Of a stretch of DNA of 64,000 nucleotides, positions 3,758 through 47,215 are shown piece after piece. Position 1 is the first letter of the stretch. Every line of letters begins with the position of its first letter. The stretch is taken from the NCBI GenBank assembly GCA_001002135.1, contig LCLP01000003.1, positions 41,198 to 105,197 on the forward strand. Direction: 5' to 3'. The DNA comes from Candidatus Pacebacteria bacterium GW2011_GWA1_46_10 (lineage in GTDB: Bacteria; Patescibacteriota; Microgenomatia; UBA1400; PJMF01). Below the pieces are notes generated by a model. It did no database searches. It saw only the letters and a program-made list of their open reading frames with translations, and had not been told where the DNA came from. The translations under genes were made by a program, and so were the position numbers.

Positions 3758-4096
3758 ATGAAAGCCAATATCCATCCTCAGTGGCATCATGACACAGTCG
3801 TGACCTGTAGCTGCGGCAATACTTTTACCACCGGCTCGACGAAGCAAGCGATTCACGTCGATATCTGTAGTGCCTGCCACCCATTTTTCACTGGTGAAAT
3901 GAAGTTTGTGGACGTCCAGGGCCGGGTCGATAAATTTATGGCCAAGGTCAAACATGCTCAAGTCACACAGACTCAAACCCAGAAAAAAGCTGCCAAGAAA
4001 AAAGCCGCTGAGGCCAAATCTTACCAACAGATTTTACGCGAACAAAAAGCCACCCTCCAAGGGGCTAAGCAGACTACTCCCGCTTCTCAAAATTAG
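3758..4096 (+). CDS. rpmE: 50S ribosomal protein L31 with Lys/Ala-rich C-terminal extension
   Basis: [28 protein letters not shown]...[11 protein letters not shown] matches L31 Cx2C...CxH zinc ribbon; extra ~40-aa [12 protein letters not shown] tail; ORF-track start 3719 is likely too early. Confidence 0.85.
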
Positions 4097-4115
4097 CTTT
4101 ACTCCAGAGGTGATT

Positions 4116-4138
4116 CACTCCCAACCCGGGAGTTTTTT
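4116..4138 (+). terminator. intrinsic terminator after rpmE
   Basis: ACTCCCAACCCGGGAGT hairpin followed by TTTTTT (4133-4138). Confidence 0.6.
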
Positions 4139-4172
4139 GCCGTCAGGGCATATATAATGAAGGGACCATCGT

Positions 4173-5114
4173 ATGCATAACCCATACAGTACTCAAATCA
4201 GCGAACTGGAAGAGAAAATTAAAGCCAACGAGCAACTCTTGGATGATCCTGAATTGGCTGAACTGGCCAAACAAGAACTGGAGAGCTTAAAAGCGCAAAA
4301 ACAAGTCTTGGAAGATGCGGCCGCTGAACTGACTCAAGACCACCCAATCGGCAGTGATCCCAGTGATACCACTCAGTCTAACGCGATCCTCGAGATTCGT
4401 GGCGGCGCAGGTGGTGATGAAGCCAAAATCTGGGCCAACGACCTGCTGCGGATGTACGTACGATTTGCTGAACGTATTGGGTTAAAATACGAATACCTTG
4501 ATGATACGGTCATTCAGTTTCGCGGCAAAGCAGAGCTAGACGGCCAAGTGTTGCACCCGTACGAACTGCTCAAATACGAATCAGGCGTGCATCGCGTTCA
4601 GCGAGTGCCGGTCACCGAGGCACAAGGTCGAGTCCATACCTCCACCGCCAGTGTGGCCGTCTTGCCTGAAATCGCCCAGAACACCATCGCCATTAAAGAC
4701 GAAGATCTGGAATGGCAGTTTATGCGCGCGAGCGGTGCCGGCGGGCAGTCGGTCAATAAAACTAGCAGTGCCGTCCGCCTCACTCACACTCCCAGCGGCA
4801 TTGTCGTGACCTCCAGCCGCGAGCGCAAACAGGCTCAAAACCGGCAAATCGCGCTGGCACTACTGCGAGCTCAGCTCTGGGAAATCGAGGAAGAAAAACG
4901 CCTGGAAAAGCTGGGGAAAGCGCGCAGTGTGATCGGCAGAGCGATGCGCGCCGAGAAAATCCGCACCTATAACTACCCCCAAAACCGCGTCACCGATCAT
5001 CGAATTGCGGTTTCGTGGCACGCGCTCGATACTATTATCGACGGTGATTTAGAAAAAGTACTCTTGGAAGTACGTCAAAAACTGGAAAATCCAGAAAAAC
5101 TGACCGAGGACTAA
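4173..5114 (+). CDS. prfA: peptide chain release factor 1
   Basis: 313 aa; GGQ motif (SGAGGQSVNKT) and PVT tripeptide anticodon motif (RVPVTEAQGR) = RF1 rather than RF2 (SPF). Confidence 0.9.
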   Translation: MHNPYSTQISELEEKIKANEQLLDDPELAELAKQELESLKAQKQVLEDAAAELTQDHPIGSDPSDTTQSNAILEIRGGAGGDEAKIWANDLLRMYVRFAERIGLKYEYLDDTVIQFRGKAELDGQVLHPYELLKYESGVHRVQRVPVTEAQGRVHTSTASVAVLPEIAQNTIAIKDEDLEWQFMRASGAGGQSVNKTSSAVRLTHTPSGIVVTSSRERKQAQNRQIALALLRAQLWEIEEEKRLEKLGKARSVIGRAMRAEKIRTYNYPQNRVTDHRIAVSWHALDTIIDGDLEKVLLEVRQKLENPEKLTED

Positions 5115-5171: not shown

Positions 5172-5201
5172 AAGGAAGGCTCGCTACGCCTTCCTTTTTC
5201 G
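5172..5201 (+). terminator. intrinsic terminator after prfA (possibly bidirectional)
   Basis: AAAAAAGGAAGGC-TCGCTAC-GCCTTCCTTTTTC: 9-bp stem with A-run upstream and T-run downstream. Confidence 0.55.
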
Positions 5202-5372
5202 TTATGGTACCGGCATTTGGTTGTCTGCTCCTGCCTGACTTTGCTCAATAACTTGAGGAGCTTCCTGCCTGTCAGGAACGGAGGGTTTAGTCAACACAAA
5301 CGTCAGCACCAACCGGACAACAATCATCACTTCCATGAAGAGGGTCGCCAGTTGAGTTCTGGAGAATTTCAT
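5202..5372 (-). CDS. small membrane protein (56 aa from internal ATG with strong SD)
   Basis: ATG at 5372 preceded by GGAAAGGAGAG 4 nt upstream; MKFSRTQLATLFMEVMIVVRLVLTFVL is one TM helix; upstream 11 codons of the called ORF lack an RBS. Confidence 0.4.
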   Translation of the reverse strand: MKFSRTQLATLFMEVMIVVRLVLTFVLTKPSVPDRQEAPQVIEQSQAGADNQMPVP

Positions 5373-5692
5373 GACTCTCCTTTCCCCGAGTAATTCAGGC
5401 AACAAGCCTGCGTACCACTTACGTTAGAACAAGCTCGTACTCGGTTTCACTTGCTCTCCTCAATTTTTTCTGCTGGAAAACACCAAAGACAACAAATCAC
5501 CCGCTCGTTTGACCGGGGTTGTGCCTTTGAGTTAACAAAAAGGAAATAACATCACTGCCCCGGCGTTAGAAACGACGGTGCCAATACTTGTTCGCCAGAG
5601 TAAAAGCAAACCAGCTGTGATTCATAAGACCATCATTTTAAAACAAAAGTGAAAAAAAGAAAGCTACAAACCCCCTCTTTAAGCTCGCTCAT

Positions 5693-8981: not shown

Positions 8982-9321
8982 ACGTATCCTTTCGACACAG
9001 ATAGACTCTTAAAAGAGTTATTGTTACTGATAAAAATGGAAGTTTAAGACCGTGAGTGAGGGTCTTTGTATATTGGTTGTCAGACTTTGGTCAACCGTCA
9101 CCGGTTGGTTTCATCCCACAATTTATGGACGTATACTCGCCCAGAGGGTCTCCGTAGATGCTCCCCGCCATGGCGGGGGTCCGAGCTTCTCCCGATGTAT
9201 CGGGAGAAATCCCTCTTCCTCGTCTTCCCGATTTCGATTCCGTCTTATCGGGACCACACGCTCTAGTGATAGAGACTCTGCTCACCTCCTTTCGTTTAAT
9301 ACCAAGCTTAATATACCACAA
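8982..9321 (-). promoter_or_regulatory. long structured 5' leader of glmS (candidate cis-regulatory RNA; glmS-ribozyme-like GACGAGGA motif)
   Basis: 340 nt non-coding upstream of glmS on its strand containing several GC-rich hairpins (CCCGAU-N14-AUCGGG; UCUCCCGAUACAUCGGGAGA; CCCCGCCAUGGCGGGG) and AAGACGAGGAAGAGGG with downstream CCCUCU complement. Confidence 0.4.
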
Positions 9322-17044: not shown

Positions 17045-17242
17045 TTAATCGATCTAAATATTTATATCGATCAGTTTGCGAGCCGCCGCGACATACTCTT
17101 GCCCATCATGCCCTCTGGACAAATCTTTTAAAACCTTCACTTCGTACCCTAAATCAAACGCTTCATACGCCGAGGCCAGCACACAGGCATCGGTGTCAAT
17201 GCCACACAAAAGGAGTTTACTTACTTGATTGTTTTGGGGAAA

Positions 17243-19074: not shown

Positions 19075-19099
19075 AAAAGGAAGATGCAGGCTTCCTTTT
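19075..19099 (-). terminator. cassette A 3' hairpin AAAAGGAAG-CCUGCAU-CUUCCUUUU (minus-strand RNA)
   Basis: 9-bp perfect stem; loop CCUGCAU complementary to the loop of the 5' hairpin at 19558-19580; near-identical hairpin at 21598-21622. Confidence 0.5.
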
Positions 19100-19116
19100 G
19101 GTTGGAACTCTATTCT

Positions 19117-19323
19117 TTATGAAGAGTTTACTTTCCGTTTTATCTGCCAGGTTATCAGGAATAGAATTAAAATCGCTAATCCTGAAAAACCAAGCCTCAA
19201 CGCAAAGCTGTCTTTTGAAGACAATCCCATCACTATGAAAAATACTCCTGCAGCTAAAACGCCTGCAAAAGTTTCTCTCATAGAGTATCCCTTGCCATCT
19301 CTAGGGTGCAATCCCATGATCAT
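19117..19323 (-). CDS. cassette A small ORF2, 68-aa two-TM peptide
   Basis: ATG 19323 lies 1 nt after ORF1 stop (translational coupling); MIMGLHPRDGKGYSMRETFAGVLAAGVFFIVMGL...LAILILFLITWQIKRK. Confidence 0.4.
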   Translation of the reverse strand: MIMGLHPRDGKGYSMRETFAGVLAAGVFFIVMGLSSKDSFALRLGFSGLAILILFLITWQIKRKVNSS

Positions 19324-19324
19324 T

Positions 19325-19525
19325 TTAGTGAATATTGTGGCGTTCAGGGTCGTAGGAACTGTCAGCAACTCTGCTGACAAAAACCCGACCTAAACCATCA
19401 CCGTCATCATGACCCACTGGCATCGGTCCGCCAACTGCTGAACGTTTTCCAGGTTGTTTTTGAGTCACTTGGTCGTCATTGGCTTTTTTAACACCAAACG
19501 ACAACTTGAGAAAAATCGTAATCAT
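19325..19525 (-). CDS. cassette A small ORF1, 66 aa
   Basis: ATG 19525 preceded by CTAGGAGGCTCACAA (AGGAGG SD, 7-nt spacer); no family recognised. Confidence 0.5.
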   Translation of the reverse strand: MITIFLKLSFGVKKANDDQVTQKQPGKRSAVGGPMPVGHDDGDGLGRVFVSRVADSSYDPERHNIH

Positions 19526-19557
19526 TTGTGAGCCTCCTAGGCTGATAGTGGGTTAAC

Positions 19558-19816
19558 TAGAAAAGCCTGCATCTTCTCTATTAAAGAGCGAACCTGTCAG
19601 AGCTTATTCTGATGGTTCACCAGAGCTCAAACTTGTGAAAAGTTTTTTGCTCTCTCTAATAGCTAGTTACTAGAGACAACAAAAAACAGCCATCAAAAAA
19701 CCCGCCGAAGCGGGGTGATGACTGTTTGACTTTTTATTTTTACTGCACGTTAAATCACCCCGCTCTTAGAGAGGGTGTGATAGCTGACTAAAACTTGCGC
19801 ATCTTTATTTAACATG
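19558..19816 (-). ncRNA. cassette A ~290-nt structured leader (paralog of 21910-22160)
   Basis: Between predicted TSS (~19816) and SD: 5' GCGCAU..AUGCGC hairpin, CCCGC-UUCG-GCGGG + U6 terminator-like hairpin (19703-19717), nested stems gaacc/ggttc and agagc/gctct, 8-bp hairpin with loop AUGCAGG; covarying stems versus copy B. Confidence 0.55.
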
Positions 19817-19822
19817 CGCCCT

Positions 19823-19850
19823 ATTATAGGGGAAATTAATTGTATGTCAA
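19823..19850 (-). promoter_or_regulatory. sigma70 promoter TTGACA-16-TATAAT driving cassette A
   Basis: Minus strand TTGACA (19850..19845), 16-nt spacer, TATAAT (19828..19823). Confidence 0.6.
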
Positions 19851-19871
19851 TATGTTAATACGTTAATATAT

Positions 19872-20174
19872 TTATCTCTTTGACTTGCCGTACATTCTCT
19901 CCAGTACGGTTGAGTAACCTTGCCACGACTCACGATATAACCACTGCGCTACTCTCGTCACTGTTGTTGTACTAGTGCCAACTTCTTTCGCAATCTCCAG
20001 ATACGATTTCTCCGTCGTCCACAGCAACTTGGCAATCTGAAAACGTCGGGAAAACTCTTCAATCTCTGCTGGCGTCAGCAAATCCCTCAAAAAACCAGCA
20101 ATTTCTCGCTCACTCTTTAATTTTGTGAGAGCATTAACCAACTCTTTATCTTGTTTAGAGGGATATTTGGGCAT
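19872..20174 (-). CDS. TrpR-like/YerC-family DNA-binding protein
   Basis: 100 aa; ..LLTPAEIEEFSRRFQIAKLL...SYLEIAKEVGTSTTTVTRVAQ.. Trp-repressor-like HTH. Confidence 0.65.
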   Translation of the reverse strand: MPKYPSKQDKELVNALTKLKSEREIAGFLRDLLTPAEIEEFSRRFQIAKLLWTTEKSYLEIAKEVGTSTTTVTRVAQWLYRESWQGYSTVLERMYGKSKR

Positions 20175-20196
20175 GTTAACAGTTTAACATTTTTGC

Positions 20197-20688
20197 TTAA
20201 ACAATCTCCGTAATTTCTGGTTTTACTATTTTTCGATAATCTTCTGCCTTCATCGCCACCGAAAACCGCCGATCGCCGGCGTTAAAAACAATTTTTTCCA
20301 GCTTCATGAGACTGGGATCCACAATCACTTTTAAGTCAAACAGATTGCCAAACGGTGGAACACCTCCTGGTTCAACTCCATCAGTGAGCTTCCCCACCTC
20401 TTCTGTGGTGGCAAAACGGATGTCCTTGGCACCCAGCAAGGCTTTGAGTTTGACTCCATCAAAACGCTTATCTCCAGGCAATACTAGCATCAGAAACTCT
20501 TTATCCTGCTGACTGCGTTTTACCCGAATAATGATCGCCTTAGCGCCCTGCTCCAGTGAGTAACCTGTGCGCACCTTAGCTGCCTCCTCACTCGTCCTCA
20601 CTGGCTCATGCTCAAAAGTCTCAAACCAGTAACCGCCAGCCTTGAGCAAATCTAGAATTTTTGAGGTAACGGGGTGGTATTGTGGCAT
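20197..20688 (-). CDS. aminoacyl-tRNA deacylase, YbaK/ProX family
   Basis: 163 aa; ..DGVEPGGVPPFGNLF.. signature of YbaK/prolyl-tRNA editing domain. Confidence 0.75.
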   Translation of the reverse strand: MPQYHPVTSKILDLLKAGGYWFETFEHEPVRTSEEAAKVRTGYSLEQGAKAIIIRVKRSQQDKEFLMLVLPGDKRFDGVKLKALLGAKDIRFATTEEVGKLTDGVEPGGVPPFGNLFDLKVIVDPSLMKLEKIVFNAGDRRFSVAMKAEDYRKIVKPEITEIV

Positions 20689-20694
20689 GAAGTT

Positions 20695-21639
20695 TTACTT
20701 TCTCGCAAAAACCAGCAAAATAATGCCAATAATGGCCAATATCAATCCCAAGCTTACTTTTCCATAATGCTTTTTTAAATCAATTTCTTTAAATACTAAA
20801 ATGCCGATGGCGATTGTCCATAAGGCGCTGGTTTGAATCATGGTAAAAGCAATTGAGGCGGCTAAATGTTGATATGAGAAAAGTTGAAACAAGCTTGCAC
20901 CCAGATATAGAACGCCAGCTGACAAACCTACCCATACTTCTCTTTTTACTGCTCTTCGCAATTCACTAATTTTTCCTCTCAATAAAATATAGGTAGCAAT
21001 ACTGCCGGCAATAGCCAAACTCCAAACGACTTGTTGCAAGTACACGCCGACATGAGAGGTGACGTATTTCTGAATGACAGCAACTGACCCAAACCCTAAG
21101 GCTGAGAGTAATGCCAAAGATACTCCTCTGATATTAATTTTCTTTGCTGTCTCGGATGAAGTAGTGAAAAATATCGCTGATAGAAAAATTGCTACAGCGG
21201 CCAGTAAAGCAAATACAGGATTGGTGGTAGCAAATTCCTTTAAAACCACCAGGCTCAACACTGCTCCTACTGGTCCTTGTAAATTTTTCCATTGATTGGA
21301 TCTAGAAAGACCAATTAAATCAATCGAACCGACAAACAATACAAATGATCCTGCCCAGATCAAGCCAGCCAAGACTGACCACCATAAAATAGGCGAAAAT
21401 GATTCTTGAAAACCTAACAATGGTTTAAAGAGATATAAAACCAATGAACAAACCGAAAAACCCACAGCCATAAAAAAACTGAAAACCACCGGGGAAAGTT
21501 TGCTGAGTTTTCTGGGAACAACGTAGAGGCTAAAAAAAACCGAACTGATAAGTGCAAATAGATAACCGCTCACGAAGGAGATTATAACAACAAAAGGAAA
21601 AGGAAGATGCAGGCTTCCTTTTTTTGTAATACTACTCAA
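20695..21639 (-). CDS. DMT superfamily transporter (EamA-like); N-terminus as called is probably too long
   Basis: 10-TM protein; first ~12 codons of the called ORF overlap the cassette B 3' hairpin (21598-21622), so the true start is likely downstream. Confidence 0.6.
   Translation of the reverse strand: MSSITKKGSLHLPFPFVVIISFVSGYLFALISSVFFSLYVVPRKLSKLSPVVFSFFMAVGFSVCSLVLYLFKPLLGFQESFSPILWWSVLAGLIWAGSFVLFVGSIDLIGLSRSNQWKNLQGPVGAVLSLVVLKEFATTNPVFALLAAVAIFLSAIFFTTSSETAKKINIRGVSLALLSALGFGSVAVIQKYVTSHVGVYLQQVVWSLAIAGSIATYILLRGKISELRRAVKREVWVGLSAGVLYLGASLFQLFSYQHLAASIAFTMIQTSALWTIAIGILVFKEIDLKKHYGKVSLGLILAIIGIILLVFARK
21598..21625 (-). terminator. cassette B 3' hairpin AAAAGGAAG-CCUGCAU-CUUCCUUUU, bidirectional terminator-like
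   Basis: Same 25-nt hairpin as 19075-19099; followed by T-rich tract on both strands (TTTTTTTTG on +, CCTTTTGTTGTT on -). Confidence 0.5.
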
Positions 21640-21653
21640 GATTATTGAACGTT

Positions 21654-21881
21654 TTATGGTTGTCTGATTTGAATTGAATCCACTTTTTTATCCCCATCAA
21701 AAACATCCAGAAAATACTGAGTCTTTGGAGGTTGTACTTCAATATGAGCTCCACCCCATTGCCCCCTACACCCAGTGGCTGAGTAAAGTGTGGCAGTTGT
21801 AACTTCAAAACGGCAACCAGGATATTTAGCTTGTAATTGATCCAACGCCTCTTTTTGGGTCGGTAGTCTGTTTTCTGCCAT
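21654..21881 (-). CDS. cassette B small ORF, 75 aa
   Basis: ATG 21881 preceded by TATAAGGAGATGAA (AAGGAG SD); protein MAENRLPTQKEALDQLQAKYPGCRFEV... unrelated to cassette A ORFs. Confidence 0.55.
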   Translation of the reverse strand: MAENRLPTQKEALDQLQAKYPGCRFEVTTATLYSATGCRGQWGGAHIEVQPPKTQYFLDVFDGDKKVDSIQIRQP

Positions 21882-21909
21882 TTCATCTCCTTATACAAGA
21901 AAATTTGGT

Positions 21910-22160
21910 CAGAAAAGCCTGCATCTTCTCTGTGAAAGAGCGAACCAATCCGAAGCAATTTCGGCGGTTCACTAGAGCAAATAAAACTTTTTCAAGGTTG
22001 TTTGCTCTCCTCAATTCTCTGAAAAATACTTAAGACAACAAAAAACCCCGAAGACTTCGGGGTATTGCTGTTTGATTGTTTGTTGAAAATAAATCACTTC
22101 CCCGAAGTTAGACTTGGGGATAACAATAAGCGCTAGACTTAAATTGAACGTGATTCATTG
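21910..22160 (-). ncRNA. cassette B ~280-nt structured leader (paralog of 19558-19816)
   Basis: Alignable with copy A across ~240 nt; shared blocks agaaaagcctgcatcttctct, aaagagcgaacc, ggttcac-agagc, gctctc, acaacaaaaaac; stems differ by compensatory changes (ccgaagcaatttcgg vs tcagagcttattctga; ccccgaagtcttcgggg vs cccgcttcggcggg). Confidence 0.55.
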
Positions 22161-22166
22161 GGGGAG

Positions 22167-22195
22167 ATTATAACAGATTGTACGAGGGGGTTGTG
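22167..22195 (-). promoter_or_regulatory. candidate promoter for cassette B (TATAAT 22172..22167; weak -35)
   Basis: Minus-strand TTATAAT with upstream TACAAT; -35 poorly conserved compared with copy A. Confidence 0.35.
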
Positions 22196-22317
22196 ATTCG
22201 TTTTAGAACTTACGGGTAAAAATAACTAAAAGTAAAAACTAGTATTTATGTATAATCAGAACTAGCTCTGGCCGTCAGTATTTTCATTGGGTATCTCGGC
22301 TTCCGAGTGGAGAAGAA

Positions 22318-35316: not shown

Positions 35317-35959
35317 TCATTTCTTCTACAGCATTAATTTTTGCTTGATAATCGTTGGGGTCTGCTTGTTGTAAATCACTGCCCAACAAATCTGCATAAA
35401 CAAACAGCAACAATCCTGGAGCTAAATCGCCCATGGCGTACAAAAGTTCGGCAAAGAAGTCTCGGTCAGATCTTTGCAGCTTTACACTCACCAAACCATG
35501 CATATAACCGTGAGCCAACACAAATTGATAAATCCACTCCTTTTCTACTTCAGTCAAATCAACCTGTTGTAAACAGCGCCTGGCCCAACTCACTCCGGTT
35601 AATTCATGACCAGGAGCACTAAAATTTCCCAGAGCGGTCTCTATCAGAACTTCTGCTTTGCCCATATCATGAAAAACCGTGGCTAGGAAAATCAGCGTTT
35701 GGTGCGAAACTTTATCTAGTTTACTAACTAAATAGGTTTGCAATTTGGCTTTTAATGATTCATTTTTAATAAATGCCAAGGCAAACAACTTTTCCAACCC
35801 CTCCAAAACTGCTATCACATGATCATACACTGACTGGTGATTATGATAGGCGCTGTTTTCTTTGGTGTTTTTCAATCGATAAAACTGAGGAAAGACATCG
35901 GTAAAATCACCGTCTTTAAGGGATTTGAGGGTAATCGCCTGCGGAGCAAGTTTTACCAT
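35291..35959 (-). CDS. HD-domain phosphohydrolase
   Basis: 222 aa; ..HNHQSVYDHV.. and ..VFHDMGK.. His/Asp metal ligands of HD superfamily. Confidence 0.6.
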   Translation of the reverse strand: MVKLAPQAITLKSLKDGDFTDVFPQFYRLKNTKENSAYHNHQSVYDHVIAVLEGLEKLFALAFIKNESLKAKLQTYLVSKLDKVSHQTLIFLATVFHDMGKAEVLIETALGNFSAPGHELTGVSWARRCLQQVDLTEVEKEWIYQFVLAHGYMHGLVSVKLQRSDRDFFAELLYAMGDLAPGLLLFVYADLLGSDLQQADPNDYQAKINAVEEMIGWLDETL

Positions 35960-39309: not shown

Positions 39310-39367
39310 ATATTGTCCGACAGACTTAAAAAGTCATTTTCTGAAACATATCTCTCTTTTCCAAAAC

Positions 39368-39417
39368 GACTCTCAATTTTTGTAATACAATGTATTACAG
39401 ATTTAAGGAGTCATTTC
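39368..39417. repeat. 50-nt palindromic element (copy 1), GACTCTCAATTTTTGTAATACAATGTATTACAGATTTAAGGAGTCATTTC, upstream of dut
   Basis: 49/50 identical to 47091-47140; core perfect palindrome TGTAATACA-A-TGTATTACA flanked by GACTC/GAGTC. Confidence 0.6.
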
Positions 39418-39429
39418 CAAAAACCGACA

Positions 39430-40233
39430 TTACTTCCCACCCTTTTTCCATTGACCATTCATTAGCACCGGCGCATAGACATCATCAGCAGGTTCGATCA
39501 AGAGAGCCCTTAACTCGATCTCAGTCGGCGGTCGATCTTGCCAAACCACTGGTTGATTGACATCCGTTACCACGGCGAGCGGTCGACGTTCATCGCTCTC
39601 TCCCATCTCGAGTGCCGCGGCAATGCCGACTGCCTCGGCCACATTAACCTGCGTCATCTCGAGTCTTTTGCCAAATAAATCCGGCTGACCAATTTTATTA
39701 ATCAACACTTCAAACCCACAACTAGCGATCGCCGTACCTGTCACTCCCCACTTGAGCGGTACCGTTTTACTGTCGGTGACAATCACCCCCAACTCCCTAA
39801 CCTTGAACTGCTGGCGGAGAAACTGCCAAATATTATTGGTGGTCACTTGTAGCTTTTCCGGCCACAGTACGTAATGGTTGTCGGCGTTTGACTGATCAAT
39901 GCCGGCGTTGACCGCGAGAATCGAGTTTTTGATGGTTAACATCAAATCATATTTAGATTGAGTTGGCTCCAAATACAAATCAGCTTCTCTGCGCACTAAG
40001 TCGTGTTTTAGATCTCGATCACTGCCGTCAACCGGCACCAGTCTGTTTTGCGCAAAACTGATGATTTTGGAAGTGATGACGACAAAACTTTTCTCTGGCA
40101 GTTGAGCAATATTTTGGGCCAAAAATTGGTGGAGGTCTTCACCTGGTTGAAACAGCGGTGTGTGAATGGCAGTCACGTGCATTGGCGGTATTGTACCAAT
40201 CAAACTGATTACTGGTACAATCTGACCATTCAT
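39430..40233 (-). CDS. CofE-family (F420-0:gamma-glutamyl ligase-like) protein
   Basis: 267 aa; ..VVITSKIISFAQNR.. and ..AVNAGIDQSNAD.. resemble CofE/PF01996 signatures. Confidence 0.55.
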   Translation of the reverse strand: MNGQIVPVISLIGTIPPMHVTAIHTPLFQPGEDLHQFLAQNIAQLPEKSFVVITSKIISFAQNRLVPVDGSDRDLKHDLVRREADLYLEPTQSKYDLMLTIKNSILAVNAGIDQSNADNHYVLWPEKLQVTTNNIWQFLRQQFKVRELGVIVTDSKTVPLKWGVTGTAIASCGFEVLINKIGQPDLFGKRLEMTQVNVAEAVGIAAALEMGESDERRPLAVVTDVNQPVVWQDRPPTEIELRALLIEPADDVYAPVLMNGQWKKGGK

Positions 40234-47078: not shown

Positions 47079-47147
47079 GTTTGTAGAAATGACTCTCAAT
47101 TTTTGTAATACAATGTATTACAAATTTAAGGAGTCATTTCTACAAAC
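47079..47147. repeat. palindromic element (copy 2) with extended outer arms GTTTGTAGAAAT / ATTTCTACAAAC, 50 nt upstream of the BrnA-like gene
   Basis: Core 47091-47140 identical to 39368-39417 except one A/G; whole element is a ~69-nt nested palindrome. Confidence 0.6.
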
Positions 47148-47215
47148 AGATATCCCTCTCAACCGAAACACCCCGCTAAACCGAGTAACTCATAAAGCAA
47201 CATCACCCGATGAGA

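Follow-up and report, generated by a model that had tools for sequence, protein, structure and literature searches.

The YerC protein is known as HisR, the histidine repressor (PMC9413887). Pacebacteria are ultra-small CPR bacteria, and the window analysed here, a stretch of 64,000 nucleotides from Candidatus Pacebacteria GW2011_GWA1_46_10, contains a hisR/yerC-type gene (source annotation "TrpR-like protein YerC/YecD") directly upstream of the first of two related cassettes, named A and B. The front end of cassette A includes a histidine-type leader-peptide attenuator, an established type of element, and has the following features.

19872..20174, minus strand: hisR/yerC-type TrpR-family regulator gene (Pfam Trp_repressor, E 8e-19)
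19852..19869, minus strand: 18-bp imperfect palindrome ATATTAAC-GT-ATTAACAT adjoining the -35, candidate HisR operator
19823..19850, minus strand: sigma-70 promoter TTGACA-16-TATAAT
19750..19815, minus strand: leaderless leader-peptide ORF, MLNKDAQVLVSYHTLSKSGVI then stop, its ATG 7 nt after the -10
19687..19775, minus strand: attenuator (complementarity, MFE fold, terminator scan 19714-19701)

The promoter, which a sequence-only reading of this DNA had called a consensus one, matched the consensus at 12/12 positions. The attenuator is made of segment 1 (CACACCC), segment 2 (GCGGGGUGA), segment 3 (UCACCCCGC) and segment 4 (GCGGG followed by U6), and its terminator is nested inside a longer helix, AACAGUCAUCA/UGAUGGCUGUU. 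The same architecture is present in relatives, where the same palindrome and promoter follow hisR, together with a leaderless ORF of 20-21 codons with 2-4 His codons, and where the 1:2, 2:3 and 3:4 pairings are those of cassette A. The palindrome shows the consensus ATGTTAAC-GT-GTTAACAT at the same position in 8 orthologous loci. The orthologous leader peptides read ..SHHTPSKSGVI, ..IHHHHALSGVI, ..LIHHHHAICGVI, ..VLHHHHAISGVK and ..LHHPHGIGGVI, with unchanged spacing from the -10. With its single His codon (SYH), the leader in the window may no longer sense histidine; by its sequence the ORF is a degenerate His leader. Relatives also carry the HisR-type front end without the core, before hutH and other genes. 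In one relative the same place is taken by tRNA-His, the his operon and a T-box match that is weak, at 43 bits against a gathering score of 93. The comparison shows that entry into cassette A would be gated by the candidate HisR operator and the consensus promoter, together with the attenuator and its leaderless His leader peptide. The sequence-only reading had taken the internal terminator for the expression platform of a riboswitch, which was rejected, as this terminator precedes the core and in cassette A belongs to the separate His-type attenuator downstream of hisR/yerC (PMC9413887).

The corresponding front end of cassette B is degenerate.

22167..22175, minus strand: putative extended -10 TGTTATAAT, placed by the A/B alignment; not called by the scan for want of a -35
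22108..22158, minus strand: possible leaderless leader ORF (degenerate), MNHVQFKSSAYCYPQV then stop, read from the sequence
22045..22125, minus strand: attenuator-like region (fold; terminator scan 22063-22045)

Upstream of the -10 lies a degenerate copy of the cassette A promoter, from which the palindrome and the -35 are gone. The possible leader ORF has its ATG 8 nt after the -10 and its stop in the loop of hairpin 1:2. The attenuator-like region reads CCCCAAG / CUUCGGGG / CCCCGAAG / CUUCGGGG and then U6, and the identity of segment 2 with segment 4 gives a perfect 2:3 alternative pairing. On this comparison, cassette B is a duplicate with a decayed front end.

When the regions 19520-19870 and 21870-22215 (minus strand) were aligned, the mean column identity was 77% and the blocks named in the sequence-only reading were invariant; the cassettes, hairpins, promoter and ORFs it had described were all found at their places. 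The search for more copies in related sequences, which were metagenome contigs, yielded five extra intact cassettes and one remote cassette (D), giving seven intact cassettes (window A, window B, L073 A′, L073 F, L061 A″, L039 C and L071 E). Judged by alignment, A and B are paralogous copies of one small-gene transcription unit found so far only in a few Pacebacteria. Each unit comprises a terminator/antiterminator switch at the upstream end; a structured 5′ UTR core of ~127 nt with U6-GUUGUCU, P1/P2 around GAGAGC and a covarying P3; a 5′ element AGA(G/A)AAGAUGCAGGCUU; an SD followed by one or two small ORFs; and an invariant intrinsic terminator AAGGAAG-CCUGCAU-CUUCCUU, with a 5′ arm and loop perfectly complementary to the 5′ element. 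The parts in the window are as follows.

19559..19686, minus strand: conserved leader core A (CM R1 141.6 bits, E 2e-30), with U6-GUUGUCU, P1/P2 alternatives around GAGAGC, two-tier P3 hairpin and 5′ element
19588..19620, minus strand: P3 of A, GUGAACC-A-UCAGA-AUAAGC-UCUGA-CA-GGUUCGC (fold -15.9 kcal/mol, z = -2.9)
19559..19579, minus strand: 5′ element and weak hairpin of A, AGAGAAG-AUGCAGG-CUUUUCU
19325..19525, minus strand: ORF1 of A, 66 aa, preceded by an AGGAGG SD
19117..19323, minus strand: ORF2 of A, 68 aa, two hydrophobic segments, start 1 nt after the ORF1 stop
19075..19099, minus strand: 3′ terminator hairpin of A, AAAAGGAAG-CCUGCAU-CUUCCUUUU, complementary to the 5′ element (fold -8.1 kcal/mol)
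21911..22045, minus strand: conserved leader core B (CM R1 122.7 bits)
~21944-21976, minus strand: P3 of B (fold -16.7 kcal/mol, z = -3.9)
21911-21931, minus strand: 5′ element of B, within core B
21654..21881, minus strand: ORF of B, 75 aa, member of the LPTxQEA small-protein family
21598..21622, minus strand: 3′ terminator hairpin of B, identical to that of A (terminator scan)

The terminator scan of the window placed terminator-like hairpins at 19714-19701, 22063-22045 and 21622-21598. The leaders fold better than their shuffles (A, z = -5.6; B, z = -3.5), and the claim of two paralogous units on the minus strand, with an RNA leader that is structured and functional, was supported. In 8 copies the core helices pair in 93% of cells versus about 45-49% when partners were slid, and 13 pairs show two-sided changes, a number reached by 0/500 shuffles; in P3, 10/13 pairs changed on both sides across the 8 copies and 97% of cells pair, all these counts being inflated by relatedness because the compared sequences belong to one narrow clade. 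The compensatory differences noted between A and B are real, and the covariation holds in the 6 further Pacebacteria copies. Since a U-G pair is kept in 8/8 core copies and reading the opposite strand would turn the G-U of the 5′ hairpin into an A-C mismatch, it is the sense strand that folds, and the functioning of the leader core as RNA is well supported by these comparisons.

The core (P1/P2/P3) might be a ligand- or factor-sensing aptamer, an orphan riboswitch in which the P1/P2 switch signals to the 5′ element and SD. The stretches U6GUUGUCU, GAGAGC, GCUCU and CUCUUU, invariant yet unpaired or alternatively paired, would fit such a function, as would P1 and P2 being mutually exclusive helices, each about 90-100% compatible with the aligned copies; the Rfam search, proposed earlier for excluding known families, matched no family with the leader core. 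However, neither P1 nor P2 covaries decisively, the core is very narrowly distributed, its cargo, which differs in window A behind the same core, lacks a metabolic identity, and the terminator lies upstream and is thus not the expression platform of the core. We regard an aptamer as decidedly unlikely.

The complementary elements claimed for the window were present in every intact copy (7/7, on several distinct Pacebacteria contigs). In the 17-nt 5′ element only one position varies, by one change in one cassette, whereas the terminator AAGGAAGCCUGCAUCUUCCUU never varies, the 21-nt 3′ element being 100% identical in 7/7 cassettes. The 3′ repeat stood as a hairpin but not in its extent, the identical block being 27 nt, more than the hairpin alone; the 5′ hairpin is also present, but weak on its own (-5 to -6 kcal/mol) and missing from the MFE of one relative. 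The elements bracket one ORF or two (two in window A and L073 F) and so delimit the coding part. In the full-length MFE of 7/7 cassettes, 14-18 positions of the 5′ element pair with the 3′ element, and the local 5′ hairpin is absent from all 7 folds. The long-range duplex has 18 pairs in the cassette A MFE and appears in both the MFE and the centroid of the cassette B mRNA, and its energy is -28 to -34 kcal/mol versus -6 and -8 for the two separate hairpins.

The best explanation, in which we place slightly less than even confidence, is that of a duplicated unit regulated by pairing of its 5′ and 3′ UTRs. The terminator hairpin would form first and end the transcript, its loop would dock on AUGCAGG, and the contact could spread to a 14-18 bp duplex of both UTRs around the whole coding part. 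This duplex would close the mRNA and set its fate, through either exonuclease protection or a new RNase III site, which in turn would set the small-protein output. As the 3′ element and both loops never vary, the 7 cassettes show no covariation between the 5′ and 3′ elements, and hence complementarity, thermodynamics and co-occurrence are what argue for the pairing. The fourth stem pair of the 5′ hairpin is seen as G-U, G-C and A-U, which supports the local hairpin and hence a loop-loop state rather than the full duplex. The single change in L071 (G to A) costs the long-range duplex one pair and strengthens the local hairpin.

A chance match of loops on generic terminators, combined with a low-complexity repeat, is barely credible. 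The stems are indeed A/U- and purine/pyrimidine-rich, and shuffled RNAduplex controls reach about -20 kcal/mol. But the 14-mer GAAGATGCAGGCTT occurs exactly 4 times in the window, as had been counted (19080+, 19563-, 21603+ and 21915-), and a count of 4 or more was reached in 0/100 shuffles even with 2 mismatches allowed; the same element pair recurs in the 5 further cassettes on other contigs, and other terminators of the region have different loops. The 14-mer shuffles, the metagenome cassettes and the full-length folds all contradict chance.

The invariance of the elements across paralogues is unlike a purely intramolecular pairing and suggests an extra sequence-specific partner or cross-talk between units. 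Both elements could be bound by a trans-acting partner such as an RNA-binding protein, RNase or small RNA, the complementarity being secondary; one possibility is a double-stranded or palindromic recognition motif reused in both orientations. They are near-invariant in seven cassettes whose neighbouring helices changed freely, and in a cross matrix all combinations of 3′ and 5′ elements pair equally well. Against this, no candidate partner was found, the 14-mer in the window is confined to the cassettes, as are all genuine metagenome matches, and the opposite-sense loops are not readable as the same RNA motif by one protein. A trans partner is unlikely, though not far-fetched.

Pairing of the UTRs might also act by long-range antitermination, in which the 5′ element, when free, captures the 5′ arm and loop of the terminator (AAGGAAGCCUGCAU) as they emerge, while the 3′ arm has yet to be transcribed, so that termination is suppressed and transcription reads through into transporter-ybaK-hisR after B and an 87-aa ORF after A. 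Twelve pairs are possible before the 3′ arm, versus a terminator of 9 bp and -8 kcal/mol with a short U tract, and the P1/P2 alternatives could decide if the 5′ element is free. However, the genes downstream of A and B have their own -10, 7 nt before leaderless starts, every relative has something else downstream (toxin-antitoxin genes, trpR2 or the contig end), and the distance of 280-580 nt is kinetically unfavourable, all of which makes antitermination quite improbable.

The three small ORFs were as the sequence-only reading had given them, and the products of the two cassettes are unrelated inside the window; in relatives the claim fails, as the cassette A orthologue encodes a homologue of the cassette B protein. 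Most cassettes carry LPTxQEA, a tiny orphan protein family for which the two protein databases searched yielded only about 5 members, and window A has unrelated ORFs between the same flanks. ORF1 had no homologue among the sequences compared and did not convincingly resemble the ORF of remote cassette D (E 0.34), all reading frames lacked any trace of the LPTxQEA family, and ORF2 had no match in Pfam.

An arm-spacer-arm arrangement is the layout of tyrosine-recombinase core sites. The repeats, 20-25-bp imperfect palindromes with an inverted asymmetric 7-bp spacer, resemble it and could be sites of recombination or inversion, or could delimit a mobile cassette by which small genes are exchanged. 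Consistent with this, the window A ORFs are unrelated to those of orthologues A′ and A″, and the homology breaks off directly behind the SD, to return at the 3′ hairpin. Of the earlier suggestion of a mobile gene-capturing cassette, the swapping of cargo between conserved flanks stood, but no recombinase was present within about 6 kb in the gene lists of the locus contigs, no dispersed copies were seen, and locus contigs from several samples were 99.9-100% identical with no inverted or excised variant. Moreover, the G-U pairs and the U-G kept in 8/8 copies fit the RNA sense strand only, the repeat pair does not include the conserved 127-nt core, and the 3′ hairpin is a terminator of the ordinary sort, T tract included. 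A DNA-level role is very unlikely.

Remote cassette D (L065) has other sequences at both positions, again complementary (AGAAAAAAGAGGG..CUAGUUA versus UAACUAG..CCCUCUUUUUUUCU); this complementarity, in low-complexity sequence, was equalled by 19/500 shuffles (p about 0.04), and its backing for the 5′-3′ pairing is weak. The window also contains a decayed third copy.

5190..5500, minus strand: decayed copy, syntenic with intact cassette C of L039

The CM search (E<=10, default filters) did not recover it, and its 5′/3′ duplex was not better than shuffles. It keeps GUUGUCU and GAGGAGAGCAA, its terminator is AAAAAGGAAGGC-GUAGCGA-GCCUUCCUUUUU, and its ORF is shortened to 56 aa; P3, the AUGCAGG/CCUGCAU pair and most of the ORF were lost together.

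Cassettes A and B, the two minus-strand small-gene units of the window that the sequence-only reading had regarded as paralogous, were found to be 77% identical on alignment, and the sequence blocks singled out in that reading are invariant. The 14-mer GAAGATGCAGGCTT, counted there four times with two sites in each orientation, is present exactly so (19080, 19563, 21603, and 21915); all four sites in the 64 kb fall within the two cassettes, and this count was reached by 0 of 100 shuffles with two mismatches allowed. The promoter at 19850..19823 matched the consensus at 12 of 12 positions, and the small ORFs were found in both cassettes as listed earlier, the cassette B protein being UX28_C0003G0072. 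Both leaders, described as structured, were more stable than shuffles on folding (z = −5.6 and −3.5). The terminator scan agreed with the terminator-like reading of the internal hairpins and of the cassette B 3′ hairpin (21622–21598), which was called as an intrinsic terminator; the cassette A 3′ hairpin is present with a sequence identical to that of B, has the tail TTTTCCCT and was not listed by the scan.

Further copies were searched by a metagenome pattern scan and among the relatives of the neighbouring regulator and of the cargo small-protein family (LPTxQEA). The expectation of more copies in relatives was borne out by five additional intact cassettes and a remote one, and a decayed copy was found in the window itself:

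L056/L073, intact cassette A′
L061/L062, intact cassette A″
L039/L042 (Pacebacteria RIFOXYB1_FULL_39_46), intact cassette C
L071, intact cassette E
L073, intact cassette F
L065/L066, remote cassette D (33 bits)
Window 5190–5500 (approximately), minus strand, decayed third cassette, in synteny with intact cassette C (L039)

The decayed cassette is flanked by an unannotated gene (stop ~5693) and a convergent gene, and a second TrpR-family gene that is present in L039 beside cassette C is absent from the window. The metagenome pattern scan returned 31 loci, of which only L039/L042, L045, L056, and L059 were genuine, all in cassette contexts. Scanning of genome contigs with GTGAACC..GGTTCGCTCTT....GAG gave only chance matches in unrelated phyla, the source species being unmatched there, and two pattern scans of viral contigs gave nothing beyond chance matches; a viral match, L020, was rejected because it falls within a coding region. 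A fourth window copy suggested by the inverted repeat I1 (5454–5494 versus 35854–35894) was rejected because its arm at 35.8 kb is coding-like, and a 172-bp insertion in contig L004 proved to be an N-filled scaffold gap. The contigs encoding identical small proteins were 99.9–100% identical to the window locus and collinear, and were uninformative because they represent the same clone.

The core, here meaning the leader of about 127 nt that begins at the U tract and ends at the 5′ element, was modelled from five copies (covariance model R1), and its pairs were counted on eight. R1 recovered every intact copy at 114–144 bits and cassette D at 33 bits; two other loci, L046 and L050 (E ~1e-3), were rejected, since the first encodes a GNAT protein and the second is unrelated. 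In line with the covariation argued from the first two copies, standard pairs occupied 93% of the cells as compared with 38–49% when the partners were slid, and 13 pairs changed on both sides, which 0 of 500 shuffles matched, these being counts on few and related sequences in an alignment fitted to the model. The helix P3 (GUGAACC-A-UCAGA-loop-UCUGA-CA-GGUUCGC) covaries at 10 of 13 pairs and is paired in 97% of cells, with the inner helix variants UCAGA/UCUGA, UCGGA/UCCGA, CCGAA/UUCGG, UUGGA/UCCAG, and ACAAG/CUUGU. A U-G pair kept in all eight copies, together with other G-U pairs, indicates that the folding strand is the mRNA sense strand. The GAGAGC segment may choose its partner between the upstream U6GUUGUCU (P1, 90% paired, with one U-G to C-G change, in F) and the downstream GCUCU (P2, 100% paired, with an AAA/UUU extension in B), and decisive covariation was absent from both P1 and P2 in the eight copies. 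Comparison of the copies shows the core to be a conserved predicted RNA structure on the sense strand.

When the whole window was compared with Rfam (4227 families) at gathering score, only a tRNA and glmS were obtained and none on the core; between 18900 and 22400 at E ≤ 10 the core had no match except cow-rumen-4 at 21.5 bits (E 3, 21880–21933, the B 5′ hairpin). Because the core, as the Rfam check proposed with it has now shown, matches no family, the RNA motif comprising the core and its self-complementary ends is called undescribed, and it would be a variant of bacterial 5′-3′ UTR regulation. The glmS ribozyme (58.7 bits, above gathering score) lies at 9067–9273 and the tRNA gene at 1604–1676, both on the minus strand. 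Three known RNAs were dropped as readings of the core, each with no Rfam match: group II intron domain V, for which the catalytic AGC triad is missing, the hammerhead, for which the CUGANGA core is missing, and the T-box, for which the T-box sequence is missing. A core that senses a ligand is improbable. The terminator precedes the core, and the cargo consists of an orphan family or unrelated ORFs and not of genes from a single pathway, both of which speak against a riboswitch.

The internal hairpin had been proposed as the expression platform of the core. This was not supported; the hairpin instead terminates a leader-peptide attenuator, an element of known type, lying directly downstream of the following gene:

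19872–20174, TrpR-family YerC/YecD gene upstream of cassette A (Pfam Trp_repressor and source naming)

YerC is HisR, a histidine repressor (PMC9413887). The palindrome ATATTAAC-GT-ATTAACAT by cassette A is a candidate HisR operator. The orthologous hisR loci compared were the Pacebacteria loci having the attenuator, L068 being excepted as a T-box-like leader takes its place. They conserve an 18-bp palindrome, ATGTTAAC-GT-GTTAACAT, which abuts the −35, differs from the published HisR consensus cacTTTAnnnnnnTAAAgtg (PMC9413887) and is likewise a candidate operator. The promoter TTGACA-17-TATAAT lies 3′ of it, and the leader ATG is only 6–10 nt past the −10, which therefore implies leaderless translation of the leader peptide. 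The leader ORFs have 20–21 codons including His codons (e.g., MFVSVQQFSAIHHHHALSGVI, ..LIHHHHAICGVI, and ..VLHHHHAISGVK), with HHHH in L063, L067, and L070, HHPH in L064, and HH in L056 and L061. In the window, leader A reads ..SYHTLSKSGVI with a single His left (YH), and leader B has one His, at codon 3. Three pairings exclude one another in both A and B, namely 1:2, the antiterminator 2:3, and the terminator 3:4 with its U tract. In cassette A, GCGGGGUGA is complementary to both CACACCC.. and UCACCCCGC, and in the orthologous loci it pairs with either CAYCACC.. or UCACCCCGC; in cassette B segment 4 repeats segment 2 exactly (CUUCGGGG), and the four-segment topology is kept while the operator, −35, and leader peptide have decayed.

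The genes behind this switch differ among relatives. The window attenuator leads into the core and orphan small ORFs, without histidine biosynthesis, uptake or utilisation genes, and in L063 and L064 it precedes unknown genes plus a nucleoside hydrolase. The hutH-type lyase (Lyase_aromatic) downstream of it in L070 makes this the only relative with predicted control of a histidine gene by the attenuator. L068 has at the same position (3815–4240) a T-box-like leader (43 bits, E 2.6e-8, under gathering score), and its hisR orthologue and this leader are followed by tRNA-His(GTG) and a complete his operon running from hisG through hisE, and CPR genomes do not usually encode the full histidine pathway. 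Searched at E ≤ 10, the window and contigs L070 and L063 had no match to Rfam His_leader RF00514, and the attenuator part matched rimP (24 bits), Phe_leader (22.6 bits), and Trp_leader (17.5 bits) weakly, the gathering scores being 41–55.

The likeness to amino-acid leader-peptide attenuators (his, trp, and phe; RF00514, RF00513, and RF01859) covers the 5′ half of A and the decayed one of B. A short ORF with His codons, alternative terminator and antiterminator, and hisR directly upstream are shared with his-type attenuators and the HisR regulon (PMC9413887). Unlike the known his, trp, and phe attenuators, the leader peptide here is predicted to be leaderless and the terminator lies inside an additional long-range helix; unlike the known his attenuators, the window has one His codon and the controlled genes are not histidine genes. 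Comparison of the loci shows the front end of cassette A to be a putative HisR-linked His-type attenuator, in which the leaderless translation, the CPR host, and the re-use before non-histidine genes are unusual.

Cassettes C, E, and F sit behind a second TrpR-family paralogue of 85–86 aa, and their switch is a CCCAGGG/CCCUGGG/CCAGGG terminator. The promoter of this paralogue contains a 20-bp palindrome, TGTATCATTG-TACTATTACA (L073 1020–1320; L039 2343–2640), whose resemblance to the proteobacterial HisR/TrpR motif TGTAnTA......TnTTACA (PMC9413887) suggests autoregulation. The genes after both 3′ hairpins of the window (~19059 and ~21570, minus strand) have a GTG start exactly 7 nt past TATAAT, and since the leader peptides have the same spacing, leaderless mRNAs are suggested to be common in this organism.

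The 3′ terminator AAGGAAGCCUGCAUCUUCCUU (loop CCUGCAU) showed zero changes across the seven intact cassettes, and the 5′ element AGA(G/A)AAGAUGCAGGCUU (loop AUGCAGG) was found in 7 of 7 with its sole change in L071, the adjoining helices having diverged freely in the same seven. The pair encloses a single ORF, or two in the case of window A and of F in L073, and comparison shows that the two elements always co-occur and are complementary in sequence. Two observations lend the pairing indirect support. The decayed window copy has lost the two elements along with P3 and the larger part of its ORF, and cassette D carries other sequences at both element positions that are still complementary; the latter is weak, as the sequence is of low complexity and 19 of 500 shuffles equalled it. 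Coincidence can be given next to no probability as the explanation of this complementarity. A trans-acting partner would explain the invariance of the elements and is rather unlikely.

The complementarity between the 5′ and 3′ UTRs comprises 14 Watson-Crick pairs and 2 G-U pairs. The 3′ element has a perfect 9-bp stem, a 7-nt loop and a T tract after it, and its hairpin alone is weak (−8.1 kcal/mol), as is the 5′ hairpin (−5 to −6 kcal/mol), which is missing from the MFE structure of C; the 5′/3′ duplex, calculated as intermolecular, reaches −28 to −34 kcal/mol. Full-length MFE structures of all seven units had 14–18 long-range 5′-3′ pairs and the local 5′ hairpin was absent. This pairing does not occlude the SD, as the 5′ element ends 17–35 nt upstream of it. 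Covariation cannot prove the pairing, as neither loop varies and the 3′ element does not either. At its fourth stem pair the 5′ hairpin does vary (G-U, G-C, and A-U), and so the local hairpin is probably of importance as well, in keeping with a pathway in which a loop-loop contact grows into the duplex.

In the reading that we prefer, and to which we give not quite an even chance, the 3′ hairpin would dock on the 5′ element after termination, the docked elements would form a duplex closing the mRNA, and this duplex would govern mRNA stability or translation. Long-range antitermination by the elements finds little credence with us.

The closest analogues of such closure may be the 5′-3′ pairing of icaR (PMC3868564) and the fold-back inhibition of hok (PMC9841398). 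The icaR mRNA of Staphylococcus aureus and the cassettes have in common a 3′-terminal sequence complementary to the mRNA's own 5′ UTR, a predicted duplex of sufficient length for RNase III, and a proposed effect on translation or stability (PMC3868564). The cassette duplex in this comparison is predicted from sequence and folding. The icaR 3′ motif pairs with the SD itself (PMC3868564), whereas the cassette target lies upstream of it, and unlike icaR, the 3′ partner in the cassettes is the terminator hairpin itself, and the pair has been copied along with entire units and does not vary among paralogues. With hok (fbi/tac), a type I toxin-antitoxin system, the cassettes share the pairing, predicted in their case, of the ends of a small-ORF mRNA into a closed form (PMC9841398) and a hydrophobic segment in some cargo (window A ORF2 and the C, E, and F proteins). 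They differ from hok in that most cargo (B, A′, and A″) is soluble, 75–79 aa and not toxin-like, and in the addition of a structured core and an upstream attenuator. No antisense RNA gene was found, and no antisense promoter of the hok/Sok kind over the 5′ UTR was convincing (9 of 12 matches, a background frequency). Kissing-loop antisense pairs of the ColE1 RNA I/RNA II type have, as here, two hairpins with fully complementary 7-nt loops whose contact is extendable to a duplex; unlike in those pairs, the cassette hairpins share one transcript and the 5′ hairpin is marginally stable.

The motif LPT(E/Q)xEA...C is common to the proteins of B, A′, A″, C, and E and to both ORFs of F. This LPTxQEA family is predicted to form a helix followed by three strands, with an N-terminal membrane anchor in some members, and has ~5 members in databases of 5.8 billion clusters and 1.84 billion representatives. 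A profile search of the latter added one new member, P0125; P0126 from this search was rejected as a low-complexity false match. The family is without a Pfam match, and a first impression of PepSY-domain likeness had no Pfam support. The AlphaFold model showed the helix plus three strands at a pLDDT of 58, because of which it was too poor for a fold search.

The leader and flanks of window A are orthologous to those of A′ and A″ (81% identity), and its ORFs, of 66 aa and a translationally coupled 68 aa with two transmembrane segments, are unrelated to the family. A hidden frameshifted LPTxQEA gene was rejected as no family remnant occurs in any frame, and kinship of A ORF1 to the cassette D ORF was unconvincing (E 0.34). 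Unrelated ORFs between orthologous flanks, with no remnant, show that the coding part in window A was exchanged between conserved flanks; comparison also shows the units to be duplicated whole.

Small ORFs, unrelated and mostly orphan, and conserved flanks around them with an imperfect palindrome on the 3′ side are features shared with integron cassettes (attC) and MITE-like repeats. Unlike integrons, the cassettes have no integrase, attC R/L boxes (R″-L″/L′-R′) or array, and unlike both, their 5′ flank is a transcribed structured RNA and the copies are not dispersed. No recombinase domain was present in the gene lists within ~6 kb of the cassettes, no inverted, excised or rearranged variants occurred among the contigs compared for this locus, all being collinear, and no REP/MITE-type dispersed copies were found, as the four 14-mer sites of the window lie within two cassettes and the genuine metagenome matches are cassette-only. 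Recombination or mobility at the DNA level as the role of the elements is a slim chance. We also regard as speculative and unlikely an “expression socket,” in which the core and invariant ends would form a self-pairing UTR frame, unrelated small genes would be recombined in at the flanks, and the duplex would give all inserts equal post-transcriptional control, the whole being wired to amino-acid-sensing TrpR-family regulators and attenuators; if true, this cargo system of CPR bacteria would resemble an integron but lack the integrase and be defined by RNA.

Intramolecular 5′-3′ UTR pairing is documented in just a handful of bacterial mRNAs, and the regulatory RNAs of CPR bacteria have scarcely been explored, as these organisms are uncultured. 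The cassettes, with a 127-nt covarying leader and two short complementary elements, offer a compact, clearly delimited, and testable case. Pacebacteria appear to use a HisR-linked leaderless His leader-peptide attenuator and to re-use it before non-histidine genes, which bears on the rewiring of amino-acid sensing in reduced genomes. The narrow distribution limits the general importance.

Directly downstream of A″ (L061 8684–10089) are a PhdYeFM/PIN pair and MazE with an unknown partner, and these toxin-antitoxin pairs place the cassettes in a region of variable, accessory genes. A 51-aa isochorismatase-family fragment near the cassettes (17054–17209, minus strand) is apparently a truncated gene remnant. 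Elsewhere in the window, a 78-nt direct repeat (39364–39441 and 47087–47164, 86% identical) contains the palindrome TGTAATACA-a-TGTATTACA right before an AAGGAG SD, its copy at 47.1 kb also being part of a 35-nt inverted repeat, and resembles an operator/promoter region that two genes have in common.
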